The notes under the pieces are model-generated. The model made no database searches. It worked only from the letters and a program-made list of their open reading frames with translations, and was not told the DNA's origin. The position numbers and the translations under genes are program-made. DNA of 64,000 nt from Thermoplasmatota archaeon (GTDB taxonomy: Archaea > Thermoplasmatota > Penumbrarchaeia > Penumbrarchaeales > Penumbrarchaeaceae): positions 64,001 through 128,000 of the forward strand of contig JARVGK010000003.1 in NCBI GenBank assembly GCA_029762535.1, read 5' to 3'. This document shows positions 12,404 through 37,869 of this stretch, one piece after another (the stretch's first letter is position 1; each line of letters starts with the position of its first letter).

Positions 12404-15400
12404 TCATTTTCTCTTTACTCTCTTCCTGGTCCTGACAGTGGCCCTTTCCGATCCATCGTCATCTGGGGGTGTTTCTGCGGACATGTCCTCTTCAGAGGTC
12501 TCGACCTCGGGGCCTACCTCATCGTCCTCAAGGACCTCATCCTCGAGATCTTCCTCATCTTCATATCCCTCCTCCTCTGCTCCCTCCTCTTCGTCCTCGG
12601 GCTCCCCTTCGTCCTCCAGGTATTCCTCATCTTCCAGGTCCTCATCGGCTTCCTCATCCGCGTCCCCGTAAGCCTCCTCATCGAGATAGTCATAGCTGTA
12701 AGGATCGAACTCCTCCTCATCGGTTCCGAGATCGTCGTCCCTGGGCTGTTTGATGTATATGTATACGCCGATGGCGATGATGATGATCGCGAAGATTGCA
12801 AGGGCCGCGTACATCACCTCCCTCGGTATCCCATCGGATCCTACGATGGTCCTCTCGGTCCGGAAGGTCCATGTATTGTTGGTGTAGCCCTGAGGGAAAC
12901 CGGCCCCTTCTATGGACCTGGCCTCGGTCCCGATCCTCACGGTGTATGATACGCGGTTGCCGAGCCCGTCGTGCAGGATCTCGAGGCTCTGATTGTTATT
13001 GGTCCATACGTATCTCGCACCTTTGAGGGGGGGGTCGATCGTAGTGTATGATTCGATGGTAAGGGTGTCCATGGGCTGGTTGAACATGATCCTTATGGAG
13101 GTATCGAGGTCCCTGACCGTACCTACCGGGGTCCTCCAGAGCACCAGGAGCTCCCTGGGCGGCGGAGTGAAATCCAGATAGTCCAGCCTGATCTCGAACC
13201 TGCCCCAGTATGGTTCCTGGGAACTTACCTCGAACGTATTGGTCATCTTCTGCAGATATCCCGCTCTCTTCCCGGGGATCGCCGAGACGGATTCCGGAGG
13301 GGTGACCTTGAACCTGCCAATGAAGGGGAGCGTCCTGATGCTGAACGTCGCCTCTCCCAGGTTGTTCGTGGTCCTGTTCTCGAGGACGACATCATCCATC
13401 GAAAGCAGTTCTATCAATGCGTTGAAGACCGCCCCGCTCCTCGGACCCTCTCCGAATGCGACGAAAACATCTATCGAACCGGTCTCCGGTCTGAGATAAT
13501 ATGTCAGAAAGAGTTCAGTGAAAAGATCGGGGTTCGGACCTGATGCGGATATGAACGTGCTGGTGTTCGAGAGATAGCCTGAGCGAACGCCGATCTCTCC
13601 TCTCAACGCGGCCTCCGGAGCTCCTTCCAACCTGTATTCCCCTCCCATCTCAAGGGAGGAGAATCCAACAACTCCGTCCTCCTGGGCTTGGGCGCTCTCG
13701 ATCAGAGTGCCGTTGAAGGACAGGAGACGTACTATGGAGCCCTGCGCCCCCTGGCCTGAGAGCGGCCCTCCCTCGTAAAGGACCGTCACTTCAAGTGAAT
13801 AGAGCATGCGTTCGGTCGTTCCCTGGAATACGGGAGTGTAAGGGGAATAGTTGTATGATGTATCGAAGGCCAGCATCCTGAAGCCATAAAGCGTCCCGGG
13901 GACAAGACCTCCTAGGGTGTACGACGTTTCTCCGGGACCGAGCGTCACAAGCGTTTCGAACTGCGTCATGGAGGGGGTAGAATTCATCTCGATGATGAAA
14001 CCTTCAAGATCGGTCTCGGAGCCGGGGTCCCAGGATATGGTGAGATGATCGACGCCCTTGTCGGAGATGATCGCGGAGGTTGGCGTGGCGGGCGGGGTCA
14101 GGTCCGACGTGATGTTGGTCGCTGGCTGGGAAGGAGCCCCTTCCCAAACTCCGTCAAAGGCTGACACTCTGAATATTCCCCGCGTGGAAGGGCCTATCTC
14201 AGGGGATATCCAGGATGTTGATGGATGGTCGACCTCCCCCGAGAGTATCCATTCTCCCGAGGAGAATGAGTATATCCTGTAGGCGATCGTGTCGTCGTCG
14301 TTGGGGTCCCATTTTAGCTTTATGCTCTCGAGCGTATCCAATGAGTCCGCCGTCAGGTTCAGGACGGATTGTGGAAGGTCTATGTCAGGTACAACAAGTT
14401 CGACCGACATCGGAGCCGATGTGTCGATATCGTAGACATGATCCCATATCATCGCCGTTCCCGGAACGTGAACGGTCGCGTTGGTCCTAACGTTCATAGG
14501 CGCGTTGGATCCGGGATAGATCATTTTCAAGGCCACGAATGGTGCTATTCCGCCATCCGGTCCCGTGACCGGGTCGCTCCCCCCGAAGTAAGGGGTCGAG
14601 TGGAGGCCGCCTGTCCTTTCGTTCACTACGTGGAGCTCCACTCCTTCCATGGGCTGCACGTCCTTGTACAGGACGCGAACTCCGATCGTGTTGCTTATCA
14701 TTACGTTCGACATGGGGTCGACATCGAACGAGGACACGGTAGTGTCCAGGACCTCGACCTCAGCTCCTTCGTATGCGGATAGGGCCGTCCCGCTGGCGAC
14801 TATATCCGATCCCACAACGGCATGGTCCCCCTCCCTGAATATCACGCTCCTTTGTGCGTCCACCTTGCTGTTGTTCATGAGCAGTCGGGCGCTATTCGAT
14901 TCCAGGCCGATGCCGGCGCTCTTGACGATGACGTGGTCCAGGACGATATCGTTTCCGGAGAGGTCGAGGGCGGCCATGGTGGTATTGGACCAGATGATGA
15001 CGTCCTTCATCATCATGCTGGTCGTATCGTGCCCCGTTACTATCGAATGGCCTGTGCCCGGATCGGAATGGATCATGGTGGTCAGGATGCGTAGATTGGT
15101 AGTATGCGGAGGCACTGGGCCTGCCCTTATCCCTGTCGATCCCTCTCCGATGAGGTCGATGGAACAGCCATCGATCACCCCTCTCCTTACGTCCCCGAGA
15201 ACGTCTATCCCCGTACCGGGGCCGTTCAGATATATCTGGGAGTATACCACCTCGTTATTACTTCCGCCCAGATGGAGTAGCCAACCGTCGTTGAACGATG
15301 TGAGGGTGGAGTCGATAAGGACGTTGTCCGTTCCCGAGAGGATCGATCCGCTCGAAGCTTCGCCCCAGACTATGAAGGTCGAATCTCGGATCTCCGTCTG

Positions 15401-16735
15401 GTCCGCTCCAACCCGGACCCCGAAGGAGTTGTCCGCCCTTATGGAATAGCTGTTCGAAGAAAGGAGCGCCCCCCTGCCCGGACCGAGAACGATGCCGTTG
15501 GTCATCATACCGCTGGTCATGATGATGTCATTGATCAGGGTGAGGTTCCTGTGGTCGGAGAAGGCCGCTATGATCGATCCATTCCCCCCTTGGTAGAAGT
15601 TCGATCCCGATATGGACATATCAACGCATCCCAGTAGGAACGACCCGTTCACAAGGCCCCCGGAGAGGGATATGCCCGTTTGATTATCCCCCTTCGAGGA
15701 ATAGGACAGGTCCATGATCGAGCATCCTATGAGATGGGTGCCATTGAGGAAGGACGAACCGTTCCCGAGCATGTTCACAGATGTATTGCTCAGCATGACA
15801 TCCCTCACGTTGAACACCTCGATACCTCTGGCTCCCGAGTCCAGGAAAAGGGCCGTCCCGTTCATTGTGACGTTATCACACGATGAAAGTTCGATGCCGT
15901 GTGTGTTCTTACCGGTCATGGTGAGGAAGCAGCCCTCTATCTCTATCCCGGAACCGGAGAGGTGCATCGCCGTTCCGACCATCTCGATGATCATGGCATT
16001 GAGCTCGAGGTCTGTACCCTGGAAGTGGATCCCAGATGCTCTCCCGGTCGATGTGATGCTGGAGTTATGGAAGTGGATGGAATCTCCCGAGATGATGAAC
16101 CCCTTTGAACCGGACCCGAGTCCTATGTCCATGTCCCTGAAGGTGATGTTCGAGACATTGATGGCATGGCATATCGTGGATCCCGATCCGTCACTTGCCA
16201 TTTTCCCCAATATGATGTTCGATGAATTGGCTATGTTCACGCAGATGTCCGGCGATCCCGAGAAGGATGCTCCGTCGATCTCGATGGACTTCGACGACTC
16301 TATGTTCAGAGCGATGCCGGTCGTTGACCTGAAGCCGATCCCCGTCAGATCGATGTCGTTCGAGGAGATGTTGAGAGACCGACCGACGAAGGTCATGCCG
16401 GCCAATGTTACGAAGGGAGCGGTCACACTGCTGTTCTTGCCATACGGGCCTGAGATAAGTACCGATGCCGTATCATTACCCCTGAGCGTTACGGAACGGG
16501 TCCCGACACTGATCGATTCGTTGTAATTGCCGGATGCGATGACTATTACATCGCCCTCGACGGCATCGCCCAGGGCTGCCCCTATGGTGGAATAGGTGGA
16601 TCCCGTCCCGACGTAAAGTACGAGTCCGGATGCCCCGCGTGGGGTTATCAGCAGGATCCCCGATGTGAATAACAATAATACCATGGCCGTTGCGATGAGC
16701 TTACCTTTGCGTTCCCCGGCGTGTACTTCGATCAT
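12404..16735 (-). CDS. Large surface protein: parallel beta-helix (pectin-lyase/NosD-like), FN3 domains, Ig-like domain, TM anchor and very acidic cytoplasmic tail
   Basis: LYVGTGSTYSTIGAAL...VIVIASGNYNESI beta-helix start; FN3 patterns LKWDPN..AYRIY and YTLGGLVPGTLYGFRMLAFD; TM; D/E-rich tail. Confidence 0.85.
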   Translation of the reverse strand: MIEVHAGERKGKLIATAMVLLLFTSGILLITPRGASGLVLYVGTGSTYSTIGAALGDAVEGDVIVIASGNYNESISVGTRSVTLRGNDTASVLISGPYGKNSSVTAPFVTLAGMTFVGRSLNISSNDIDLTGIGFRSTTGIALNIESSKSIEIDGASFSGSPDICVNIANSSNIILGKMASDGSGSTICHAINVSNITFRDMDIGLGSGSKGFIISGDSIHFHNSSITSTGRASGIHFQGTDLELNAMIIEMVGTAMHLSGSGIEIEGCFLTMTGKNTHGIELSSCDNVTMNGTALFLDSGARGIEVFNVRDVMLSNTSVNMLGNGSSFLNGTHLIGCSIMDLSYSSKGDNQTGISLSGGLVNGSFLLGCVDMSISGSNFYQGGNGSIIAAFSDHRNLTLINDIIMTSGMMTNGIVLGPGRGALLSSNSYSIRADNSFGVRVGADQTEIRDSTFIVWGEASSGSILSGTDNVLIDSTLTSFNDGWLLHLGGSNNEVVYSQIYLNGPGTGIDVLGDVRRGVIDGCSIDLIGEGSTGIRAGPVPPHTTNLRILTTMIHSDPGTGHSIVTGHDTTSMMMKDVIIWSNTTMAALDLSGNDIVLDHVIVKSAGIGLESNSARLLMNNSKVDAQRSVIFREGDHAVVGSDIVASGTALSAYEGAEVEVLDTTVSSFDVDPMSNVMISNTIGVRVLYKDVQPMEGVELHVVNERTGGLHSTPYFGGSDPVTGPDGGIAPFVALKMIYPGSNAPMNVRTNATVHVPGTAMIWDHVYDIDTSAPMSVELVVPDIDLPQSVLNLTADSLDTLESIKLKWDPNDDDTIAYRIYSFSSGEWILSGEVDHPSTSWISPEIGPSTRGIFRVSAFDGVWEGAPSQPATNITSDLTPPATPTSAIISDKGVDHLTISWDPGSETDLEGFIIEMNSTPSMTQFETLVTLGPGETSYTLGGLVPGTLYGFRMLAFDTSYNYSPYTPVFQGTTERMLYSLEVTVLYEGGPLSGQGAQGSIVRLLSFNGTLIESAQAQEDGVVGFSSLEMGGEYRLEGAPEAALRGEIGVRSGYLSNTSTFISASGPNPDLFTELFLTYYLRPETGSIDVFVAFGEGPRSGAVFNALIELLSMDDVVLENRTTNNLGEATFSIRTLPFIGRFKVTPPESVSAIPGKRAGYLQKMTNTFEVSSQEPYWGRFEIRLDYLDFTPPPRELLVLWRTPVGTVRDLDTSIRIMFNQPMDTLTIESYTTIDPPLKGARYVWTNNNQSLEILHDGLGNRVSYTVRIGTEARSIEGAGFPQGYTNNTWTFRTERTIVGSDGIPREVMYAALAIFAIIIIAIGVYIYIKQPRDDDLGTDEEEFDPYSYDYLDEEAYGDADEEADEDLEDEEYLEDEGEPEDEEEGAEEEGYEDEEDLEDEVLEDDEVGPEVETSEEDMSAETPPDDDGSERATVRTRKRVKRK

Positions 16736-16843: not shown

Positions 16844-18076
16844 ATGCATCCGACGGATGAGTTGAGGGGCGCAGCATCGACCCTCCTCGAAGGTAGAACG
16901 ATCGTCCTTGGCGTAACTGGGTCCATCGCTGCGGTCGAGTGCGTCAAACTCGCCAGGATGCTAATCCGTCACGGCGCTGCAGTTCATGCTGTCATGACGG
17001 CGGAGGCCAGGAAGATAGTGGGGGAGTACGCCCTCGGCTTCGCAACGGCGAACCAAGTCATCACCGAGCTGACCGGAGACCTCGAGCATGTGGCTATGTG
17101 CGGGGACGTTGAAGGGCGGGCGGACCTTCTCCTGATCGCCCCCTGCACCGCCAACACCCTCGGGAAGATCGTCAACGCTATCGACGATACCCCCGTCACG
17201 ACGTTCGCCACCACGGCGATAGGGACAGGGATCCCGTTGATCGTCGTTCCCGCCATGCACAATACCATGTACGCCCACGAGGGTGTGGCCTCCAACATCA
17301 AGAAGGCCAGGTCCATGGGCATAGAGGTTGTGGACCCGGTGCTCTCCGAGAAGAAGGCCAAAATGGCCCCGGTGGACACCATAGTCGAGATCGCGATAAG
17401 AAAGCTCTCCGGAGGGGGCCTTCAAGGTCGAAAGGTTTTGATCGTCGCCGGGGCCAACCGGGAGGAGGTGGACGATATGAGGCTCCTTACCAACAGGGCG
17501 ACTGGAAGGACCGGGATCCATCTGGCCATGGAGGCTTTCAGAAGAGGGGCGGACGTGACCCTCCTTGCCGGAGTATCGGTCCACGGGATCCCGCCTCACT
17601 TCAGGACGGTTCGCTTCGGAGGGGTCATGGACCTCTGGGAGAAAGTGGAGGAGGAATTGTCTTCCTGCGACCAGTTCGATATCGCCCTCTTCCCGGCGGG
17701 GATCTCAGACTACATACCTTCCAGGTTAGATGGGAAGGTCCCCTCGGGACGGGAGGAGATGACTCTCGAGCTCAAACCCGCCATAAGGATCATGGATCGC
17801 TTCGTGAAGAGGGGCGGTAGCCGCCTTATCGTGGGTTTCAAGGCCGAGAGCGTATCGGGTGAGGAGCTCCTGAGAAGGGCCTACAGGAGGCTTAAGGAGG
17901 TCGGGATGGACCTGATCGTGGCGAACGACCTTTCTCAGGTGAAGGAGGATTCCAATCACGTTATGATAATATCGAACGACAGGGAGGTCCTCGACATCGA
18001 GGGATCGAAGGCTGACATCGCTTCCGTGCTCATGGCGAGATGCCAGGAGATGCTCGTCGGGATAAAGGAGAGTTGA
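16844..18076 (+). CDS. coaBC: Bifunctional phosphopantothenoylcysteine decarboxylase/synthetase
   Basis: VLGVTGSIAA, IAPCTANTLGKI, VPAMH, LTNRATGRTG, VGFKAE and DLIVAND motifs. Confidence 0.96.
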   Translation: MHPTDELRGAASTLLEGRTIVLGVTGSIAAVECVKLARMLIRHGAAVHAVMTAEARKIVGEYALGFATANQVITELTGDLEHVAMCGDVEGRADLLLIAPCTANTLGKIVNAIDDTPVTTFATTAIGTGIPLIVVPAMHNTMYAHEGVASNIKKARSMGIEVVDPVLSEKKAKMAPVDTIVEIAIRKLSGGGLQGRKVLIVAGANREEVDDMRLLTNRATGRTGIHLAMEAFRRGADVTLLAGVSVHGIPPHFRTVRFGGVMDLWEKVEEELSSCDQFDIALFPAGISDYIPSRLDGKVPSGREEMTLELKPAIRIMDRFVKRGGSRLIVGFKAESVSGEELLRRAYRRLKEVGMDLIVANDLSQVKEDSNHVMIISNDREVLDIEGSKADIASVLMARCQEMLVGIKES

Positions 18077-18079
18077 ACC

Positions 18080-19273
18080 ATGGTACTGCGAGGTGGAGCT
18101 TTCTGCCCCGGGCATATCACCGGGCTTTTTTCCATACACGACGATACCGAGATGTACCTCCACAAAGGCTCCAGGGGGTCCGGGGTCTCCGTTACCCTCG
18201 GGGCCTCCGTTTCCACTGCACTGTATCCCCCTGAAGATGGGAACGGGACGGAGAACCTTTCACTGGAGCTTCATGTAAGGGGAGTTGACAAGTTCCCCGT
18301 GAACGATCCGATATACCGCCAGGTCCTGAAGGAGATGCTTCCCAATTCAGGTATCGGATGGAGGGCGGCTGTAAGGTCGAACCTGCAGCTGCCCGTAGGT
18401 CAGGGGTTCGGAATGTCGGGAGCCGGCGCCCTAGCCACCGCAATTTCCGTCTGGGAGGCCCTCCATTCGACCATTCCGCGCTGGGACCGAAAATTGAGGT
18501 TCAAGGGACAGCAGGAGATGTTCTTCTCGATGAAAACGTCGGAGTTCAGCGTCAGGCCGATAAGGAGGAGGATGCGCTCACACCTGCAGCTTCTGTCAAT
18601 GAAGGAGGAACCCTCGCTGCCTGTCCAGCCTTTCGGCAAACCCTCAGGAATGGTGGAGGAGGGAGGGGTCAGGCCCCCCATGAGGTGGCTCAAGGACAGC
18701 GAGGCCGAAAAAGGGTCCGGTGGGATCACGTACGCCGATTGCGTGAACGCGGCGCACAGGGTCGATGTCATGATCGGCGGAGGTCTGGGCGATGTGATCT
18801 CACAGGCCAGGGGCGGCGTGGAGATCAGGATGTCTCCCGGCGTCCCGCCCTACGGGGAGATCCACACCATCCCCGTGGAGCTGGACAACACCCCGAAAGT
18901 GATCGCCGCCACGGTGGGGCCCCCGATAGAAACTTCGAGGGTGATAGGGAATCCCGCAAGAAGAGAAAGGATACACGGGGCGGGCGAGGCGGCGTTGAGG
19001 AGGCTGACAGAAGCGCCATCGATGACCATGATGATGTCAGAGAGCAGGCAGTTCTCCATCGAGGCCGGGATCCAGAGCATGATGGTGAGGTCCGCCCTCT
19101 CCGAAGTCGATGCGATGGTGAAGGCCTCGCAGATAATGATCGGCAACAGCGTGTTCACCATGGTACCGAGCAAGGATAAGGACCTCGTCAAAAGTATCAC
19201 GGAGATCTGGGGAAGGAGAGGAAGCGTATTCTCCATGGACGTGGACCTGATCGGTGCGAGGCCCTTGACCTGA
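18080..19273 (+). CDS. Pantoate kinase (archaeal GHMP kinase) with a large internal insertion
   Basis: AFCPGHITGLF, GSRGSG, LPVGQGFGMSGAGAL, AHRVDV..GGGLGDV and SQIMIGNSVF motifs; directly after coaBC. Confidence 0.88.
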   Translation: MVLRGGAFCPGHITGLFSIHDDTEMYLHKGSRGSGVSVTLGASVSTALYPPEDGNGTENLSLELHVRGVDKFPVNDPIYRQVLKEMLPNSGIGWRAAVRSNLQLPVGQGFGMSGAGALATAISVWEALHSTIPRWDRKLRFKGQQEMFFSMKTSEFSVRPIRRRMRSHLQLLSMKEEPSLPVQPFGKPSGMVEEGGVRPPMRWLKDSEAEKGSGGITYADCVNAAHRVDVMIGGGLGDVISQARGGVEIRMSPGVPPYGEIHTIPVELDNTPKVIAATVGPPIETSRVIGNPARRERIHGAGEAALRRLTEAPSMTMMMSESRQFSIEAGIQSMMVRSALSEVDAMVKASQIMIGNSVFTMVPSKDKDLVKSITEIWGRRGSVFSMDVDLIGARPLT

Positions 19274-19575: not shown

Positions 19576-20646
19576 GTGTTGATCATGTTGGAGGACCAGC
19601 TTTCCACATCCAGGTTCGAGAGCGTTGGGGTCAATGTCCCCTCCAGGTCACTCACGACCACCGACCTTATGAGGTCCATGAAGCACAGGATCGGGCTAGA
19701 CCTCGAGAGGCTTACGGGCATCCATGCTAGGAGGGTCTGCGCCCCAGGAGAGTCATCATACACATTGGCCCTGAATTCCGCCAGGGACTGCCTCAGCCAT
19801 TCGAGATACAAGCCGGATGACCTGGAGGTTATAATAAACTGCTCCATATCCCGTTCAAAGGACCGGAACATGATAGTCTATGAACCATCCATGGCCCATT
19901 ACATCCGTCAGGCGATCGGGGCCAAGAACGCAATGGTGTTCGATATCAACAATGCATGCGCTGGAATGCTAACGGGCGTTCAGATACTAAACGGTTATAT
20001 CAGGAACGGAATATTCAAGAACGGCATGGTCGTCAGCGGAGAGCATATAACGCCGATCAGCGACAGCGCGACAAGGACGGTCAGGTCGATAGCGAGCAGA
20101 CAGCTCGCCTCCCTTACCGTTGGAGACGCGGGAGCCGCGGTAATACTCGAAAAAACGGGGGATCGGGGCAACGGGATGTCGGTCACCCAGTTCACCACCC
20201 TCTCGAAGTTCAGCAGGCTCTGCATAGGAAAGCCGCTCACCAACGATATCGGCGGAATGATGGTGGCAAAAGCAAGGAAGATCCACAGGGTGGCCCTGGA
20301 CCACGCCCCTCAACTGATCAAGGGGGCCCTCATCAAGGCGGGACTGACCATAGACAGGATAGATCATCTCATCCCGCACCAGACCTCGAAAAGCTCAATA
20401 AAGAAAGGCATAAAGGAGATGGCCGACCATTTCAAAGCGACTCCCAAGAACGTCGTCATCAATCTGATGGAGTATGGGAATACGGCCTCGACGACAGTGT
20501 TCCTTGCCCTTCATGACATGCTCAAGGGCGGCATCGTGAAGAAAGGCGAGAAGATCATGCTATTGTGCTTCGCATCGGGCCTGGTCGTTGGGGTTATCAT
20601 CTTTACAATGGACGATCTGGTGGATCGATATGGGATCTCGAATTAG
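19576..20646 (+). CDS. oleA: OleA/KAS-III-type acyl-CoA condensing enzyme, catalytic subunit (LstA-like)
   Basis: YEPS Glu, FDINNACAG catalytic Cys, IPHQTS His, YGNTAS Asn, VVSGE and LTVGDAGAAVIL; ATG alternative at 19585. Confidence 0.85.
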   Translation: MLIMLEDQLSTSRFESVGVNVPSRSLTTTDLMRSMKHRIGLDLERLTGIHARRVCAPGESSYTLALNSARDCLSHSRYKPDDLEVIINCSISRSKDRNMIVYEPSMAHYIRQAIGAKNAMVFDINNACAGMLTGVQILNGYIRNGIFKNGMVVSGEHITPISDSATRTVRSIASRQLASLTVGDAGAAVILEKTGDRGNGMSVTQFTTLSKFSRLCIGKPLTNDIGGMMVAKARKIHRVALDHAPQLIKGALIKAGLTIDRIDHLIPHQTSKSSIKKGIKEMADHFKATPKNVVINLMEYGNTASTTVFLALHDMLKGGIVKKGEKIMLLCFASGLVVGVIIFTMDDLVDRYGISN

Positions 20647-21526
20647 GTCAGCCGCATTCGTTGGGAAGAGCCTCAACCCTTTCTCCAGAGGCGCCATATC
20701 ACTGGGTGTCAAGGCTGCGAGGAAATGCATCCATAACTCGGGTATAGACCCGTCAGACATAGGACTGCTCATCTTCTGCGGAATATACCGGGACGAGAAC
20801 ATCGGGGAGCCGGCCATCGCCTCGCTCATACAGTCCAATCTTGATATCAACCTCCTGAGCGAGGGTGAGAAGGGGACGTTCGCGTTCGACATACTGAACA
20901 GCGGTTGTGGGATGGTGACCGCGCTCCATGTGGCCGACAGCCACCTCCGATCGGGTGGAGGTGAATATGCGATGATAGTGGCCTCCGATCACATACCCAT
21001 CCCGAGCCATACCGAGGGTTACCCTTTCCAACCCGGGGGAGGCGCACTTCTGCTCGAACGCTCCGACGAGGACAGGGGCCTTACCGATTTCAGGTTCGAT
21101 ACATATCCGACCGACAAGGAGGCCTTCCACTCGTTCATCGAATACAGGGACGGAAAGGAGAAGGGTAAAAAGAAGGGGCAGTTCCTCAGGTTCGAGGAGG
21201 ACCCACATTTCCTGGAAAAGGGCGTATCGGGTGCGCTTATGACGGTTAATAAACTCCTTGAGAGGAATTCACTGAGCATCGATGACGTACGGTCGATCCT
21301 GCCATCCCAGAGCCCGACAGGCTTCCCCATTGCCCTTGGAAAAGGGTTGGGCCAAGAGAAGAGGACCATTGACCTTACAAGCATCCATGGGAACCTCCAC
21401 ACGGCGGGATTGGCGGCCTGTCTCGAGAGCGCCATGGAGAGCGATAAGCTTCCTGCGAACTCGAACCTCCTTCTCGTAAATGTTGGATCGGGAATATCGG
21501 TGGGCGCGGCCCTTCTCCGAACATGA
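20630..21526 (+). CDS. Second KAS-III-fold subunit with degenerate active site (LstB-like partner)
   Basis: GEPAIASLIQ Glu retained; FDILNSGCG has Gly at the Cys position; LPSQSP has no His; HGNLHTAG; start overlaps the upstream gene end. Confidence 0.8.
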   Translation: MGSRIRSAAFVGKSLNPFSRGAISLGVKAARKCIHNSGIDPSDIGLLIFCGIYRDENIGEPAIASLIQSNLDINLLSEGEKGTFAFDILNSGCGMVTALHVADSHLRSGGGEYAMIVASDHIPIPSHTEGYPFQPGGGALLLERSDEDRGLTDFRFDTYPTDKEAFHSFIEYRDGKEKGKKKGQFLRFEEDPHFLEKGVSGALMTVNKLLERNSLSIDDVRSILPSQSPTGFPIALGKGLGQEKRTIDLTSIHGNLHTAGLAACLESAMESDKLPANSNLLLVNVGSGISVGAALLRT

Positions 21527-21557: not shown

Positions 21558-22553
21558 TCAGATCGGATGCCCCTTCAGATATTCTCCATACCTCTTCATA
21601 CCCTCCGCCGTGGAAATCCTAGGTCCGTAGCCAAGGTCCCTTTTGGCCGAGGAGATATCGAACCAGTGTGAACTGGTCATCTCCTCCACAAGGAACCTGG
21701 TGACAATGGGCTCTCCTCTCCTTCGAAGGAGGAAGTGGGTCAATTCCATGATCCCCGCTAAAGCCATGGCCGTCCATTTGGGAATGGACCCCCTGATAGG
21801 AGGGGCCCCTGCAAGGGCCAGGAAGTCATCGATGGCATCCCAGGCATTCACTGGCTCACCGTTGGTGATGAAATATGCTCTGCCCCTGCATCGTGGGTTC
21901 TCCTTGAGCGCTTTGAGGGCCAGGATATGGGCCTCGGCGGCGTTTTCAATATAAACCATGTCCACAACGTTCTTTCCGCCCCCTAACCTCTTCAACCTTC
22001 CGGCCCTTGCCCCCTGGACGAGCCGAGGGAGCAATCGGTCGTCCCCCGGACCCCAGATGAGATGCGGACGCAGTGCAATGGTCCGAATATCATCGCCGTT
22101 CGCTGAGAGGACCATACGCTCGGACGCCGCCTTGGTCCGGTTGTAATGCGACCCATGCACTGCGGGATACGGTGCGCTCTCATCGGCGCCCTCCATGTCC
22201 TTCCCATCAAAGACAACGGAAGGGGAGCTTGTGAAGACGAGGTAACCCACTCCGTTACTCCTGCATGCTTCGATCACGTTCCGGGTCCCCTCAACGTTCG
22301 TCCTGTGGAATTCGTGATAAGGCCCCCAGAAACCCACCCTGGCAGCAGTATGTATGACCGCATCCATGCCCCCGACGGCATCCACCACCGTTCGCTGGTC
22401 CCCTATGTCCCCTGATATCGTCATGATGCCGCTCTTCCCAAGTTCAGGATAGCTGCCTCTGGAGAAGCTCGTGACATCATGGCCCTGATCCCGGAGCATG
22501 TGACATATGGCTCCTCCCAGGAACCCGCCTCCGCCGGTGACGAGGACCCTCAT
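21558..22553 (-). CDS. oleD: OleD-like 2-alkyl-3-oxoalkanoate reductase (3-beta-HSD-type extended SDR)
   Basis: VTGGGGFLG, FTSSPSVVF, YNRTK, LRPHLIWGPGD and AYFITNGEP; start overlaps the oleC stop (TGATG). Confidence 0.88.
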   Translation of the reverse strand: MRVLVTGGGGFLGGAICHMLRDQGHDVTSFSRGSYPELGKSGIMTISGDIGDQRTVVDAVGGMDAVIHTAARVGFWGPYHEFHRTNVEGTRNVIEACRSNGVGYLVFTSSPSVVFDGKDMEGADESAPYPAVHGSHYNRTKAASERMVLSANGDDIRTIALRPHLIWGPGDDRLLPRLVQGARAGRLKRLGGGKNVVDMVYIENAAEAHILALKALKENPRCRGRAYFITNGEPVNAWDAIDDFLALAGAPPIRGSIPKWTAMALAGIMELTHFLLRRRGEPIVTRFLVEEMTSSHWFDISSAKRDLGYGPRISTAEGMKRYGEYLKGHPI

Positions 22554-24175
22554 CAGAATTGCCTCCCGGCCCATTCCGCAAGCTCTTCCCTGAGTATCTT
22601 GGCATTGTGGCGAACGTCCATCGGGAATCCGTCATGGATCAGGATATCTCTAATATCCTCGGTCAGAATATTGGCCTTTCCCAAAGCCAGGAGCTCCTTT
22701 TTGATCCTGTCCGGATCGCCGATATTTTGGTCCTTCTTAAGCTCGACAACGATCACAGGCCTCTGGTTTCCTATTTGACCCACACCGACTAGTGCCGACC
22801 TGAAGACCAAGGGGTGTTTGTTGAAGATCGCCTCACATCTGACGGGATATAGCGTTCCTTTCTTTGTCACGACCCTGTGCGCCTTCCTCCCGCAGAACCA
22901 GAGCATTCCGTCCTCCAGATAGCCCGTGTCCCCCATTCTGTGCCATATGGTCTTGCCATCCAGTATCTTGGCGTTTTTGGTATGCTCAGGCTTCCTGAAG
23001 TATTCCTTGGTCACCGAGGGCCCCCTCACGCATATCTCACCGACTTCCCCATCCGGTAGGACCTCAGCGGACCCCCAATCCGCGACAGGTCCGTCCGTGA
23101 TCCGAATGATCCGAACCTCGTTGCCAGGTAGCGGCCTACCCACGCATGTTCCTGCTCCGGTCTCGGTCCTGCGGAGGGAGTGCTCCAGTATCACATCGCT
23201 GGAGATATCAGTTACTGGCAGTGCCTCGGTCGCCCCGTAAGGAGTATGGATAAGAGCATTTTTTGGCAGTATTCGGTGAAGATCGACCATGAGGTCGGGA
23301 CGTATTGGAGCTCCCGCGGTCACGATCCTTCTCACCGATCCCAGGGTCAACTTCCTCTCTATCCCGTAACGGGCCAGGTTCGTCAAGAGCGCCGGGGAAC
23401 CATAGACATTGGTGCATTTCTGGTCCTCAATGGCCCTGACTATGTTCTTAGGATCGGCCTTTCCGGGCTTGGTAGCATCCATGTAAGGGATGACCGAGGT
23501 CAGCCCCAGGTTGGCGTCGAATAGGGCGAAGAGCGGGAACGTCGCCAGGTCAACATCTCTCTTTTCGTATCCGAAATGGTCCTTTAGGAATCCGATCTGA
23601 TGGTCGAACATGGAATGTTCGTAGACCACTCCCTTCGGGGGGCCTGTGGAACCGCTGGTGAAGAAAATACCGACGGTATCCTCAGGCCTTCTCTTGACCG
23701 AAGGGAAAGGAGCGGGATCGGAGGATCGAACCTCTTTAAGCCTCTTACCGCCCCATGCACCTGTGGTTATCTTCAGTTCGACGGTCCTGAAAGCGGACGG
23801 TGAGAGTATCCTGAGTACATGGGCAAGGGGCGTCCCGATGAACGCCTTGGCCTCGACCTCCCCGAGGGAGGAGACGAGCCTCTTCTTGCCCATACCAGGG
23901 TCTATCATAACAAGGACAGCCCCCATTTTTAAAAGGGCGGAAGTGAGGGAAAAGAACTCTATCGAGGGTTTGACCATCAGGATGGCCTTGTCGTCCTTCT
24001 TGAGCCCCGCATCGATCAACCCCCTGGCGTATCTGTTCGATTCCTCCTCTAGCCTGCGGTAGGTCATGCTCCTATATCGAGGAGACGGATCGACCTGGAC
24101 CACCACAGCCGCCTTATCAGGTTGTGTCCTTGCTAACTCCGTCAACCTCTCCGAGAGGTTCGTCGTCGAATCCAT
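22553..24175 (-). CDS. oleC: OleC-like beta-lactone synthetase (ANL superfamily)
   Basis: FTSGSTGPPKG, DLATFPLFALF, TPYGATEALPV, WHRMGDTGY, LWFCGRKAHRV and OleC-typical FPMDVRHNAKI. Confidence 0.9.
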   Translation of the reverse strand: MDSTTNLSERLTELARTQPDKAAVVVQVDPSPRYRSMTYRRLEEESNRYARGLIDAGLKKDDKAILMVKPSIEFFSLTSALLKMGAVLVMIDPGMGKKRLVSSLGEVEAKAFIGTPLAHVLRILSPSAFRTVELKITTGAWGGKRLKEVRSSDPAPFPSVKRRPEDTVGIFFTSGSTGPPKGVVYEHSMFDHQIGFLKDHFGYEKRDVDLATFPLFALFDANLGLTSVIPYMDATKPGKADPKNIVRAIEDQKCTNVYGSPALLTNLARYGIERKLTLGSVRRIVTAGAPIRPDLMVDLHRILPKNALIHTPYGATEALPVTDISSDVILEHSLRRTETGAGTCVGRPLPGNEVRIIRITDGPVADWGSAEVLPDGEVGEICVRGPSVTKEYFRKPEHTKNAKILDGKTIWHRMGDTGYLEDGMLWFCGRKAHRVVTKKGTLYPVRCEAIFNKHPLVFRSALVGVGQIGNQRPVIVVELKKDQNIGDPDRIKKELLALGKANILTEDIRDILIHDGFPMDVRHNAKILREELAEWAGRQF

Positions 24176-24179
24176 CAGC

Positions 24180-25082
24180 CTACCCCCTGCGCAGGGCTTT
24201 CCCCACCTCTTTCAGGATGCGGTCCCTGGCATCCTCTATGACATAATGTCCAGCATCCTGATATGTCACGAATCGGGCCTTCGGGAATCGAGCCCTCCAG
24301 ACGTCTAATATATCCATATCGAATATGAAATCCTTTTCACCCCAAATAACGAGCATCGGCTTCCCCTTTAGCTTTGACAGGTTCTCGTCGATCCACTTGA
24401 GCGTGCCGTAGCTTGGGTCCTTTGGTACGAGGGGTATGTCCTGAACGAACCTGAGCGTGGATAGGCGGTTCCTCCACGAGTTGTACGGGGCGACGTAACC
24501 CTTCCTTACATGGGGGTCCATCCTCTTTTCAACGCCGATATGGGACGCTATTCTGGAAAAAGCGTTGAGACCCCTGATGAGAAGGGTCGGTGAGATCAGG
24601 CCGTACTTCACGTAATAGAGAGACAGGGGCAATCTCTTGCCCTCCGGCATCCTGAAGGCCGCGGTGTTCATGAACACGAACCTCGAGAACCGCTCCGGAT
24701 GTCCGACCGCGACCCCTGCTCCGATCACACCCCCCCAATCATGGGCTATCAGAGTGATATCCTCATCGATGCCCAGGTGATCGAGGAGCGCTTCCACATC
24801 CTGGATCCTGGATGCGATCCTGTATTGGTATTTGTCCTCTCCTGGTCGGTCCGACAGCCCCATTCCCATATGATCGGGCACGATGCATCGGTGGTCCGCC
24901 CTGAGGTCCTTGACCAGCTCCCGGAAATAAAAAGACCAGGTCGGGTTGCCGTGAAGAAAAAGAACGGGAGGTCCCCTGCCCTCGTCGAGATAATGATGCC
25001 TCAGACCGTTCCTCTCGAACCAGTGATGTTCGAACGGGTAAATGTCCCTGAAAGGGGTAATATCGAAAGGTGTTCCATGCAT
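24180..25082 (-). CDS. oleB: OleB-like beta-lactone decarboxylase (haloalkane-dehalogenase-like alpha/beta hydrolase)
   Basis: YPFEHHWF, LHGNPTWSFYFR, AHDWGG, RFVQDIPL and AGHYVIED; directly upstream of oleC. Confidence 0.88.
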   Translation of the reverse strand: MHGTPFDITPFRDIYPFEHHWFERNGLRHHYLDEGRGPPVLFLHGNPTWSFYFRELVKDLRADHRCIVPDHMGMGLSDRPGEDKYQYRIASRIQDVEALLDHLGIDEDITLIAHDWGGVIGAGVAVGHPERFSRFVFMNTAAFRMPEGKRLPLSLYYVKYGLISPTLLIRGLNAFSRIASHIGVEKRMDPHVRKGYVAPYNSWRNRLSTLRFVQDIPLVPKDPSYGTLKWIDENLSKLKGKPMLVIWGEKDFIFDMDILDVWRARFPKARFVTYQDAGHYVIEDARDRILKEVGKALRRG

Positions 25083-35157: not shown

Positions 35158-35407
35158 GCCCCTTTTGTGAGGATCTAATTATTGAAGAATAACGTAATTC
35201 AGTAATTGGTCATAGCGTTCTGCGCTAATGCTATAATAGGTTTGCTTAAGGGCTATATATCACGCATCGAATGGATATTTTAACGGTTCGGAACCAAAAA
35301 AGGGCAATCTATTTATAGTTACAAGCAATAAATATATATATGGCTTCTTACGTTCGGATAATCCCGATATAAAAAACCAACTGTCTATGTCCTGGGAGGT
35401 ATGCAAC

Positions 35408-36337
35408 ATGGTAGATAAGGTCCAGGTAGAGGAAGTCACGAAATGCCCCGAATGCGGTTCCGAACACATAATAAGGGATTACGAGAGGGGCGAGCTTGTT
35501 TGCGGAGACTGCGGAGTGGTAATAAACGACCTGCAGATAGACATGGGTCCCGAGTGGAGGGCCTTCGATTCCGCCCAGGGAGAGGCCAGGGCCAGGACCG
35601 GAAGCCCCATCACCCTCACAAGGCATGACAAGGGGCTTTCCACAGAGATAGGGTGGAAGAACAAGGATTCCTACGGAAAGTCCATTCCATCCCGTAACAG
35701 GGCTCAGATGTATAGGCTAAGGAAGTGGCAGAGGAGGATCAGGGTCAGCAACGCCACGGAGAGGAATCTGGCCTTCGCGCTCTCCGAGCTTGACCGTGTA
35801 GCATCCGGGCTCGGTCTACCCCGCAATATCAGGGAGACGGCCGCTATGATATACAGGAACGCGGTGAACAAGAACCTGATCAGGGGTAGGTCCATTGAGG
35901 GTGTTGTAGCGTCATCCCTTTATGCGGCATGCAGACAGTGCAACGTCCCCAGGACGCTAGATGAGATATCAGCGGCATCCAGGGTGAGCAGGAAGGAGAT
36001 AGGAAGGACCTATCGGTTCATGACCAGGGAATTGAACCTCAAGCTAATGCCCACATCACCTCAGGATTACGTGTCAAGGTTCGCATCCGAGCTCAAGCTC
36101 TCCGGAGAGACGATAACCAAGGGTTACGAGATCCTGAAACAGGCGGACCAGCTGGAGATCACTTCAGGCAGGGGGCCAACGGGCATGGCCGCCGCGGCGA
36201 TATACATAGCCTCCATCATGACCTCGGAGAGGAGGACCCAGAGGGAGGTCGCAGACGTCGCCGGGGTTACGGAGGTCACCATAAGGAACCGCTACAAGGA
36301 GCTTGCGGAGCAGCTCGGGATCGATCTCGAGATATGA
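35408..36337 (+). CDS. tfb: Transcription initiation factor IIB
   Basis: CPECGS..CGDCG zinc ribbon, [25 protein letters not shown] and [14 protein letters not shown]; GGAGGT RBS before ATG 35408. Confidence 0.98.
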
Positions 36338-36720: not shown

Positions 36721-37869
36721 ATGGCTAATAGGGTCAGGGCGGGTACATACAGAGATACTGAGGAAGGTTACAGGGCCTTCGATCCCTTTCCGGTCCCGGA
36801 TATCGACGATATCGTCCTCGATAGGGAGATGCTGATCGCCCTCTCGAACGCTTCGATCTCGATCGGGAAGCTGGAGGGCATCTCCGGATCGGTCCCCGAA
36901 CCGGATCTTTTCGTCATGATGTACCTCAAGAAGGAGGCGGTGCTTTCGAGCCAGATCGAGGGGACGCAGGCCTCTCTGATGGACGTTCTGGAGTATGAGG
37001 GTCGAGCCCTTGACCCCAATGAGATGGCGGACCTGCCCGAGGTTCTCAATCATATCTCGGCGATGAGAAGGGGTGTCGAGAGGATAGGCAGTGGTGAACC
37101 TCTCGACCTTGGATTGATCAGGGACCTTCACAGGACCATGATGAGGGGCGGGCGCGGAGGGGACCTATCTCCAGGTGAGTTCAGAACGGTCCAGAACTGG
37201 ATCGGTCCCAAGGATGGACCATTGAACGATGCCGTTTATGTACCGCCGCCCCCTGATGCGATAAAAGGTGCATTGGAGGACCTGGAGTCGTATATCGGCC
37301 GGGGTAACGCCGCCCCGCCTCTGATCAAGGCGGCCCTTTCCCACGTCTGGTTCGAATCGATACACCCGTTCCTCGATGGGAACGGCAGGGTAGGAAGGCT
37401 GTTGATAACATTGATACTTCACAAGGATGGGGTCCTGAGTCGTCCCCTTCTATATCTTTCACATTATTTCAAGAGGAACAGGTCAGCATATTACGATAGA
37501 TTGCAGGCTGTGCGGGACGGAGATGATATCGAGGGTTGGCTCGGTTTCTTCCTCAAGGGCGTTTCGGCCGTCTCGGTCGAATCCCATGCAAAGATATTGC
37601 AGATCACCGTACTCAGGGACCGCTGTAGAAAGAACGTAATGGACGGACTTGGTCAGTCGTCTGCGGCGGGAATGCGCGTACTTGACGCACTTTTACACAG
37701 GCCCGTCATAAACGTGAATTACGTCATGGAGGTCACGGGGCTCACCTACCCTTCCGCGAACAAGCTGACAGGGGACCTTATGGGTTTGGATATCCTCTCA
37801 GAGGTGACCGGGAACAAGAGGAACCGGGTCTTCGAGTTCAAGGAATACATGGACATTCTCGAGAGATGA
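36721..37869 (+). CDS. Fic family protein (Fic_N + Fic + C-terminal wHTH)
   Basis: KEAVLSSQIEGT, PGEFRTVQNWIG and canonical HPFLDGNGRVGR. Confidence 0.94.
   Translation: MANRVRAGTYRDTEEGYRAFDPFPVPDIDDIVLDREMLIALSNASISIGKLEGISGSVPEPDLFVMMYLKKEAVLSSQIEGTQASLMDVLEYEGRALDPNEMADLPEVLNHISAMRRGVERIGSGEPLDLGLIRDLHRTMMRGGRGGDLSPGEFRTVQNWIGPKDGPLNDAVYVPPPPDAIKGALEDLESYIGRGNAAPPLIKAALSHVWFESIHPFLDGNGRVGRLLITLILHKDGVLSRPLLYLSHYFKRNRSAYYDRLQAVRDGDDIEGWLGFFLKGVSAVSVESHAKILQITVLRDRCRKNVMDGLGQSSAAGMRVLDALLHRPVINVNYVMEVTGLTYPSANKLTGDLMGLDILSEVTGNKRNRVFEFKEYMDILER

Follow-up and report, generated by a model that had tools for sequence, protein, structure and literature searches.

In the condensing enzyme OleA, the catalytic base is the glutamate of a Glu117-Pro motif that is donated by the other monomer and serves as the hallmark of the family (PMC7064751). 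Two related systems spread the catalytic residues over two different subunits. In the LstA/LstB pair, LstA holds C128/H271/N305, the E60A mutation in LstB abolishes activity, and each subunit alone is insoluble (PMC12141560). NltB, which is truncated and has no triad, gives activity only together with co-expressed NltA (bioRxiv 10.1101/856955). Here we examined two adjacent genes, termed A1 and A2, which encode proteins related to 3-ketoacyl-ACP synthase III (KAS-III) in a 64,000-nucleotide stretch of DNA from a Thermoplasmatota archaeon (assembly GCA_029762535.1, contig JARVGK010000003.1, positions 64,001 to 128,000 of the forward strand; hereafter the window). The original prediction for this region had proposed an LstAB-like heterodimer, and what it cited as established, namely that OleA Glu117 acts in trans and that LstA and LstB split the catalytic roles, was confirmed in the literature (PMC7064751; PMC12141560). 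Our analysis makes it likely that A1 and A2 work as an obligate heterodimer of the LstAB/NltAB type, in a 1:1 ratio and with one working active site, which would feed the OleD-, OleC- and OleB-like enzymes encoded beside it.

The features of the pair, numbered from the first letter of the window, are as follows.

19585 to 20646, plus strand: A1, putative catalytic KAS-III/OleA-like subunit of 353 amino acids, called from its open reading frame (ORF), Pfam matches and motifs
19882-19884, 19957-19959, 20377-20379 and 20479-20481, plus strand: A1 codons for Glu100, Cys125, His265 and Asn299, respectively
20630 to 21526, plus strand: A2, putative non-catalytic partner subunit, N-terminally shortened, 298 amino acids
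20807-20809, 20903-20908, 21305-21307 and 21392-21394, plus strand: A2 codons for Glu60, Gly92/Cys93, Ser226 and Asn255, respectively
20619 to 20646, plus strand: A1/A2 junction, a candidate for translational coupling, with GGTGG at 20619-20623 and the gene overlap at 20630-20646

The most likely start of A1 is the ATG at 19585, with an in-frame GTG at 19576 as the alternative, and the gene ends with the TAG at 20644-20646. The A2 frame is open from 20588, and its most likely start is the ATG at 20630. The two ORFs and the motifs ascribed to them were present in every detail when checked by BLASTP, HMMER and the ORF list, and so was the predicted 17-nucleotide overlap, which runs from the ATG at 20630 to the A1 stop codon.

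Both proteins matched the Pfam families ACP_syn_III and ACP_syn_III_C above the gathering cut-offs, and a PDB sequence search found both to be homologous to FabH, OleA, PqsD and PqsC structures. A1 carries the motifs YEPS (Glu100-Pro101), FDINNACAG (Cys125), PHQ (His265) and GNT (Asn299), and its Cys125, His265 and Asn299 align with the FabH triad. The matching motifs of A2 are GEPA (Glu60-Pro61), FDILNSGCG, PSQ (Ser226) and GNL (Asn255). When A1 and A2 were compared by BLASTP, Glu100 paired with Glu60 and Cys125 with Gly92. A HMMER alignment to Escherichia coli FabH placed A2 Gly92 at Cys112, Ser226 at His244 and Asn255 at Asn274. Thus, A2 has glycine at the position of the nucleophilic cysteine, with a cysteine (Cys93) one residue further on, and serine at the position of the histidine. 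It had been suggested that the partner keeps only the glutamate of the catalytic set. The glutamate is indeed kept; the word “only” is a little too strict, as A2 also retains Asn255 and a near-invariant cysteine at +1. Scored against NF006720/PRK09258 (cut-off 285), which we take to be the canonical OleA model, A1 reached 144.5 bits and A2 62.6 bits, so that neither attains the cut-off. These two proteins were the only NF006720 matches in the genome (G000, 93% complete), and none was above the cut-off. The best match to the same model was also the A1 orthologue in two Thermoplasmatota relatives, a Syntrophus metagenome-assembled genome (MAG) and a Bacteroidales MAG, again with none at or above the cut-off.

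A search of 5.8 billion proteins yielded 66 A2 relatives of similar length, and a pattern scan of GTDB species genomes with alignment gave 378 loci, the best 80 of which were examined for gene order. Motifs were counted in 81 full-length partners and 83 A1 orthologues, which come from archaea and from five or more bacterial phyla; the pattern recurs throughout this set and is not due to chance. Glu60 was found in all 81 partners and Pro61 in 80 of them, inside an invariant G-I-Y-R-D-x3-E-P-A motif. The canonical cysteine position never holds cysteine in the partners, having G, T, A or S instead, while the +1 cysteine (A2 Cys93, 20906-20908) is present in 75 of 81. At the histidine position, the partners have serine (61), alanine (18), threonine or proline, and histidine in no case. 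The asparagine that A2 retains as Asn255 is kept in just 12 of the 81 and is not conserved in the family. After the lost asparagine lies an H-T-A motif (A2 His257-Thr258, 21398-21403), whose histidine occurs in 69 and whose threonine in 73 of the 81 partners. In the A1 orthologues, cysteine, histidine and asparagine are invariant (83/83), and Glu100 is found in 81.

Across the 81 A2 orthologues, whose identities span roughly 30 to 72%, some 15 positions are conserved in 97% or more of the sequences. At protein identities of 66 to 72%, synonymous sites are already saturated. A joint tree separated the A1 and A2 sequences into reciprocally monophyletic groups with 100% support and therefore indicates that the split between them goes back to one ancient duplication. 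A2 changes faster than A1, with 31 to 40% versus 45 to 61% identity for the same genome pairs. The AlphaFold2 model of the A2 monomer has a predicted local distance difference test (pLDDT) score of 87.5 and a predicted template modelling score of 0.88, and it matches FabH/OleA structures at a template modelling score of about 0.8. Confidence falls below a pLDDT of 50 in two stretches only, residues 15 to 17 and the Glu loop at residues 56 to 60; the low score of the latter in the model is as expected if this loop is ordered only once the dimer has formed. Judged from these alignments, A2 is a selectively maintained partner and no decaying copy.

The two genes also stay together. In 79 of the best 80 loci, the gene directly before A2 is A1, and the one exception starts at a contig edge. 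Of 40 relatives of this genome, 13 gave an A1 and 12 an A2, and the A1 that lacks a partner is truncated where its contig ends. For 75 gene pairs, we determined overlap lengths, which depend on our own start calls; the overlap is 17 nucleotides in 62 of them, drawn from archaea, Syntrophales, Bacteroidota, Myxococcota and Actinomycetota. The junction consensus is TATGGG..(8 nt)..ATTGA, with an ATTAG variant, and a GGTGG-like motif resembling a Shine-Dalgarno sequence stands 6 to 7 nucleotides before the ATG. Because the overlap and the upstream GGTGG are conserved together, the junction points to translational coupling and to equimolar synthesis of A1 and A2, so that the subunits would be made together.

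Natural single-chain versions were found as well. P0084 (675 amino acids) and P0083 (625 amino acids) have their domains in the same order as the genes. Their N-terminal halves are 36 to 37% identical to A1 and carry NACAG, HQ and GNT, and their C-terminal halves are 27 to 29% identical to A2 and carry F-E-P-A-I-A-S-L while lacking the cysteine and the histidine. By this domain content, both are Rosetta-stone fusions. Two further candidates, open frames of 766 and 818 amino acids around A2 homologues in two actinobacterial genomes, were rejected because A1 and A2 lie in different frames there. An A2-like KAS-III domain also occurs in nonribosomal peptide synthetase proteins of Mycolicibacter/Mycobacterium, which are about 1,750 to 1,810 amino acids long and contain condensation, adenylation and carrier domains; this domain is 29 to 32% identical to A2 (P0070-P0082; G288:C86, G255:C68, G217:C24).

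Three homologues of ole genes follow A1-A2 in the window, all on the minus strand and thus convergent to the pair.

21558 to 22574, minus strand: OleD-like 2-alkyl-3-oxoalkanoate reductase, 338 amino acids (NF042422, Pfam 3Beta_HSD)
22553 to 24175, minus strand: OleC-like beta-lactone synthetase, 540 amino acids (PRK09274, NF045786)
24180 to 25082, minus strand: OleB-like alpha/beta hydrolase of the haloalkane-dehalogenase type, 300 amino acids

The OleC-like protein scored 656 bits against PRK09274, which is above the cut-off. The OleB-like protein has an HDWGG nucleophile elbow with Asp115 and a GHY histidine near its C terminus, which we take to be its catalytic residues. In Syntrophales and other Deltaproteobacteria, the order A1-A2-OleB-OleC-OleD is found on one strand. 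Bacteroidales have OleB-A1-A2-OleC-OleD, and a few genomes have A1-A2-OleC-OleD. The archaeal OleB, OleC and OleD are 49 to 58% identical to the genes of bacterial A1-A2-B-C-D operons; for the Syntrophales operons, the values are 49 to 53% for the OleB-like protein (at the OleB position) and 56 to 58% for the OleC-like protein. The archaeal OleD-like protein is 51 to 59% identical to OleD of the oleBCD operons of relatives. In the A1 tree, the Ole-linked bacterial pairs and the archaeal pairs form one clade with 97% support. The combination of OleB with a split condensing enzyme, which had been described as a hybrid of two cluster architectures, is therefore real, though it is no one-off, being widespread in Syntrophales and Bacteroidales. 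Among the 40 relatives, which are mutually related and for which we give counts without a statistical test, all 10 OleC-positive genomes also carry A1. A1A2 without a detected OleC was seen in G006, G019 and G023 (86%, 62% and 65% complete, respectively), and neither was found in 27 of the 40.

These data lead us to the following model, in which the physical dimer, the part that Glu60 plays in trans, and the substrates and end product are inferred. Cys125 of A1 would take the acyl group, with His265 and Asn299 as the oxyanion machinery. A2, whose own pocket is presumably dead, would dock through the usual FabH/OleA interface, and its Glu60, on the dimer-interface loop, would enter the A1 site and, as the catalytic base, take a proton from the alpha-carbon of the second acyl-coenzyme A (acyl-CoA). 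The expected outcome is a non-decarboxylative, head-to-head Claisen condensation to a 2-alkyl-3-ketoacid. This product could then be reduced by OleD, converted to a beta-lactone by OleC and decarboxylated by OleB to give a long-chain internal olefin. As had been proposed, the product might be asymmetric, made from two different acyl chains.

Several observations weigh against this scheme, some of them concerning A1 itself and the rest its tie to the Ole enzymes. A1 does not reach the curated cut-off of either the FabH or the PRK09258 model, and it fits FabH structures better (103 bits, a FabH) than Xanthomonas campestris OleA 3ROW (61.5 bits). Its own Glu100-Pro is kept in 81 of 83 orthologues, where it would face a dead pocket, and an A1 homodimer with two active sites is compatible with the sequence. 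A1 could then be a conventional OleA-like homodimer that uses Glu100 in trans, as the persistence of Glu100-Pro101 beside a full triad would allow, and A2 could be an accessory protein (a chaperone, a solubility or substrate-delivery factor, or a regulator) that contributes no catalytic residue, a role that would suit its much faster evolution. However, Glu60-Pro61 and the GIYRD...EPA context are invariant across archaea and several bacterial phyla, which would be difficult to account for if A2 were a helper with no part in catalysis. In the described systems, LstB E60A kills activity, and without their partners NltA and LstA are insoluble or inactive (PMC12141560; bioRxiv 10.1101/856955). In addition, A1 without A2 was seen only at contig ends, and natural fusions of the two exist. 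We consider the A1 homodimer unlikely, although it is the alternative that fares best.

The remaining points concern the heterodimer as a supplier of OleD, OleC and OleB. The OleD-like protein scored 398.6 bits against NF042422, below the 580-bit cut-off, and the OleC-like protein scored 565 bits against NF045786, below the 900-bit equivalog cut-off. In the present genome, A1A2 and oleBCD are convergent and do not make up a single operon. Across the archaeal family, three genes in the order oleB-oleC-oleD form a compact unit, which in relatives lies mostly on contigs other than the one that carries A1A2. A second A1 clade (Actinomycetota, Myxococcota and Gammaproteobacteria; L055-L105) has the same 17-nucleotide overlap, with no OleB, OleC or OleD within 10 kb of its A1-A2 pairs, and the genome of Rhodococcus G041, which has a pair of this clade, contains no OleC orthologue genome-wide. 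Because many actinomycetotal and myxococcotal loci lack OleBCD and G041 lacks OleC, the A1-A2 pair does not always feed the Ole pathway.

It could thus be that the A1A2 heterodimer is real and yet is not the entry step of the adjacent OleBCD, making instead another lipid, such as a ketone or a beta-keto acid, and that the adjacency is coincidental. The convergent gene sets, their place on separate contigs in relatives, the three relatives (62 to 86% complete) that have A1A2 and no detected OleC, and the large clade of pairs without nearby OleBCD, G041 among them, would all be in keeping with this. Against it, the archaeal pair falls in the A1 clade, supported at 97%, whose bacterial members share operons with OleB, OleC and OleD. 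Moreover, A1 is present in 10 of 10 OleC-positive relatives, and the 93%-complete genome holds no other OleA-like gene. A coincidental adjacency therefore appears improbable to us. Finally, that A2 is a decaying duplicate or an independently active KAS-III, as the loss of the cysteine and histidine and a frame break in the copy of one relative (G010) might suggest, is hardly credible, since the reading frame is unbroken in this genome and in 81 orthologues, the predicted fold is confident, activity of its own is unlikely without the histidine and with the cysteine displaced by one residue, and the conservation of some 15 positions across the orthologues largely refutes a pseudogene.

Some observations on the surroundings of the locus are recorded here. 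Directly upstream of the A1-A2 pair lie CoaBC (Dfp) and then a 397-amino-acid protein (together 16844-19273, plus strand); only the C-terminal part of the latter (about residues 217 to 373) matches archaeal pantoate kinase models, and these matches are below the cut-offs. CoA-biosynthesis genes, CoaBC and a pantoate-kinase-like one, thus adjoin a pair that is presumed to use acyl-CoA. Two orthologues in relatives are broken: the A2 orthologue of G010 is split over two frames (L027, G010:C3 9807-10648), and the OleC orthologue of G004 is in two pieces (L164, G004:C11 7568-9026). A frameshift or a MAG assembly error is possible for each. At 36721-37869 on the plus strand is a Fic/DOC-family protein, a 53%-identical homologue of which adjoins the oleBCD operon of relative G021 (L163 8056-9183). 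The window also contains a TFIIB gene at 35387-36337 and, at 12404-16735 on the minus strand, a 1,443-amino-acid protein with beta-helix, fibronectin-III and bacterial Ig-like domains that is probably secreted or surface-bound.

The heterodimer type is already known from LstAB and NltAB, and it is the OleB-containing context that has apparently not yet been described. Our literature search found no description of a heterodimeric OleA within OleB-containing clusters. Surger et al. 2020 reported that their survey turned up ole clusters in neither Archaea nor Bacteroidetes (PMC7158056), and a 2024 preprint noted OleABCD in Hodarchaeales by annotation. We give about an even chance to a broader reading. 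In it, the archaea of this family would make bacterial-type long-chain olefins from acyl-CoAs by means of a two-subunit OleA and oleBCD, the pairs of Syntrophales, Bacteroidales and archaea would form an overlooked branch of ole pathways that homodimer-based surveys missed and whose standard entry enzyme is a heterodimeric OleA, and the lone active site might let the enzyme choose two different acyl chains. If the proposed heterodimer is correct, then enzymes of the LstAB/NltAB type reach beyond actinobacterial beta-lactone antibiotics and serve complete olefin pathways in anaerobic bacteria and archaea as well. Searches keyed to homodimeric OleA would miss these loci, so head-to-head hydrocarbon synthesis probably occurs more widely than has been reported. 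To enzymology, the family would offer many natural OleA variants with one active site, single-chain fusions included, that could show how acyl chains are chosen. For archaeal biology, it would mean hydrocarbons derived from fatty acyl chains in organisms whose membranes are isoprenoid-based.

Of the known systems, OleA of X. campestris (PDB 3ROW, 4KU5) shares with A1/A2 the thiolase/KAS-III fold and the Glu-Pro hallmark, with Glu117 reaching across the dimer interface. A2 Glu60 and Gly92 correspond to OleA Glu117 and Cys143, an assignment reached by arithmetic from alignment boundaries and the Glu-Pro motif rather than from a printed alignment. The archaeal locus also encodes homologues of the downstream enzymes of OleABCD, namely OleD, OleC and OleB. 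They differ in that OleA is the product of one gene and forms a symmetric dimer with two active sites, whereas A1A2 takes two genes and presumably has one active site. PqsB/PqsC of Pseudomonas aeruginosa is likewise a heterodimer of FabH-like proteins, in which PqsB is catalytically dead, as we propose for A2. In the PDB sequence search, A1 matched PqsC at an E value of 1.5e-11 and PqsB at 1.4e-4, which are distant matches only. A PqsBC-like function for the pair was rejected, since there are no pqs genes and since the Ole neighbours and the conserved trans-acting Glu-Pro motif point to OleA-type chemistry.

The closest likeness is to NltA/NltB of Nocardia brasiliensis (nocardiolactone) and LstA/LstB of Streptomyces toxytricini (lipstatin), which are also adjacent KAS-III paralogues with the Cys-His-Asn subunit first. 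Like A2, LstB and NltB are about 300 amino acids long, N-terminally shortened and without the triad, and they have an essential or conserved glutamate near position 60 (LstB E60). To place A2 among such partners, we sampled 300 genomes from the actinobacterial family to which a Rhodococcus hit belongs, and this brought up a second tier of A2 homologues; the unpublished genome G112 gave a weak hit that supports none of our claims. Twelve of 20 regions with these homologues had the order A1-A2-OleC-OleD without OleB, which is the nltABCD layout. The partners in this layout have their glutamate at residues 54 to 57 and carry the motifs GxYRD..EPA, SFD..NG.CG and HTA, as in A2. A2 is about 30% identical (86 to 114 bits) to the partners in these unnamed actinobacterial A-B-OleC-OleD clusters, with which the comparison was made. 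At the level of sequence, the LstAB-like heterodimer that had been predicted is well supported by the invariant Glu-Pro, the conserved gene order and overlap, the natural fusions, and these partners with the same motifs.

There are also clear differences. The lst and nlt systems have no OleB and end in a beta-lactone, whereas the archaeal locus has an OleB-like gene. The archaeal pair sits in a separate clade; relative to the nlt-type pairs of the unnamed actinobacterial clusters, identity is about 30% for A2 and 39% for A1. The nlt-type genes lie 1 to 9 nucleotides apart, in contrast to the conserved 17-nucleotide overlap in the clade of the archaeal pair, and the hosts are Nocardia and Streptomyces for Nlt and Lst and an archaeon for the present pair. 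Taken together, these comparisons place A1A2, by its motifs and gene order, in a superfamily of split OleA-type enzymes that includes the nlt-type pairs.

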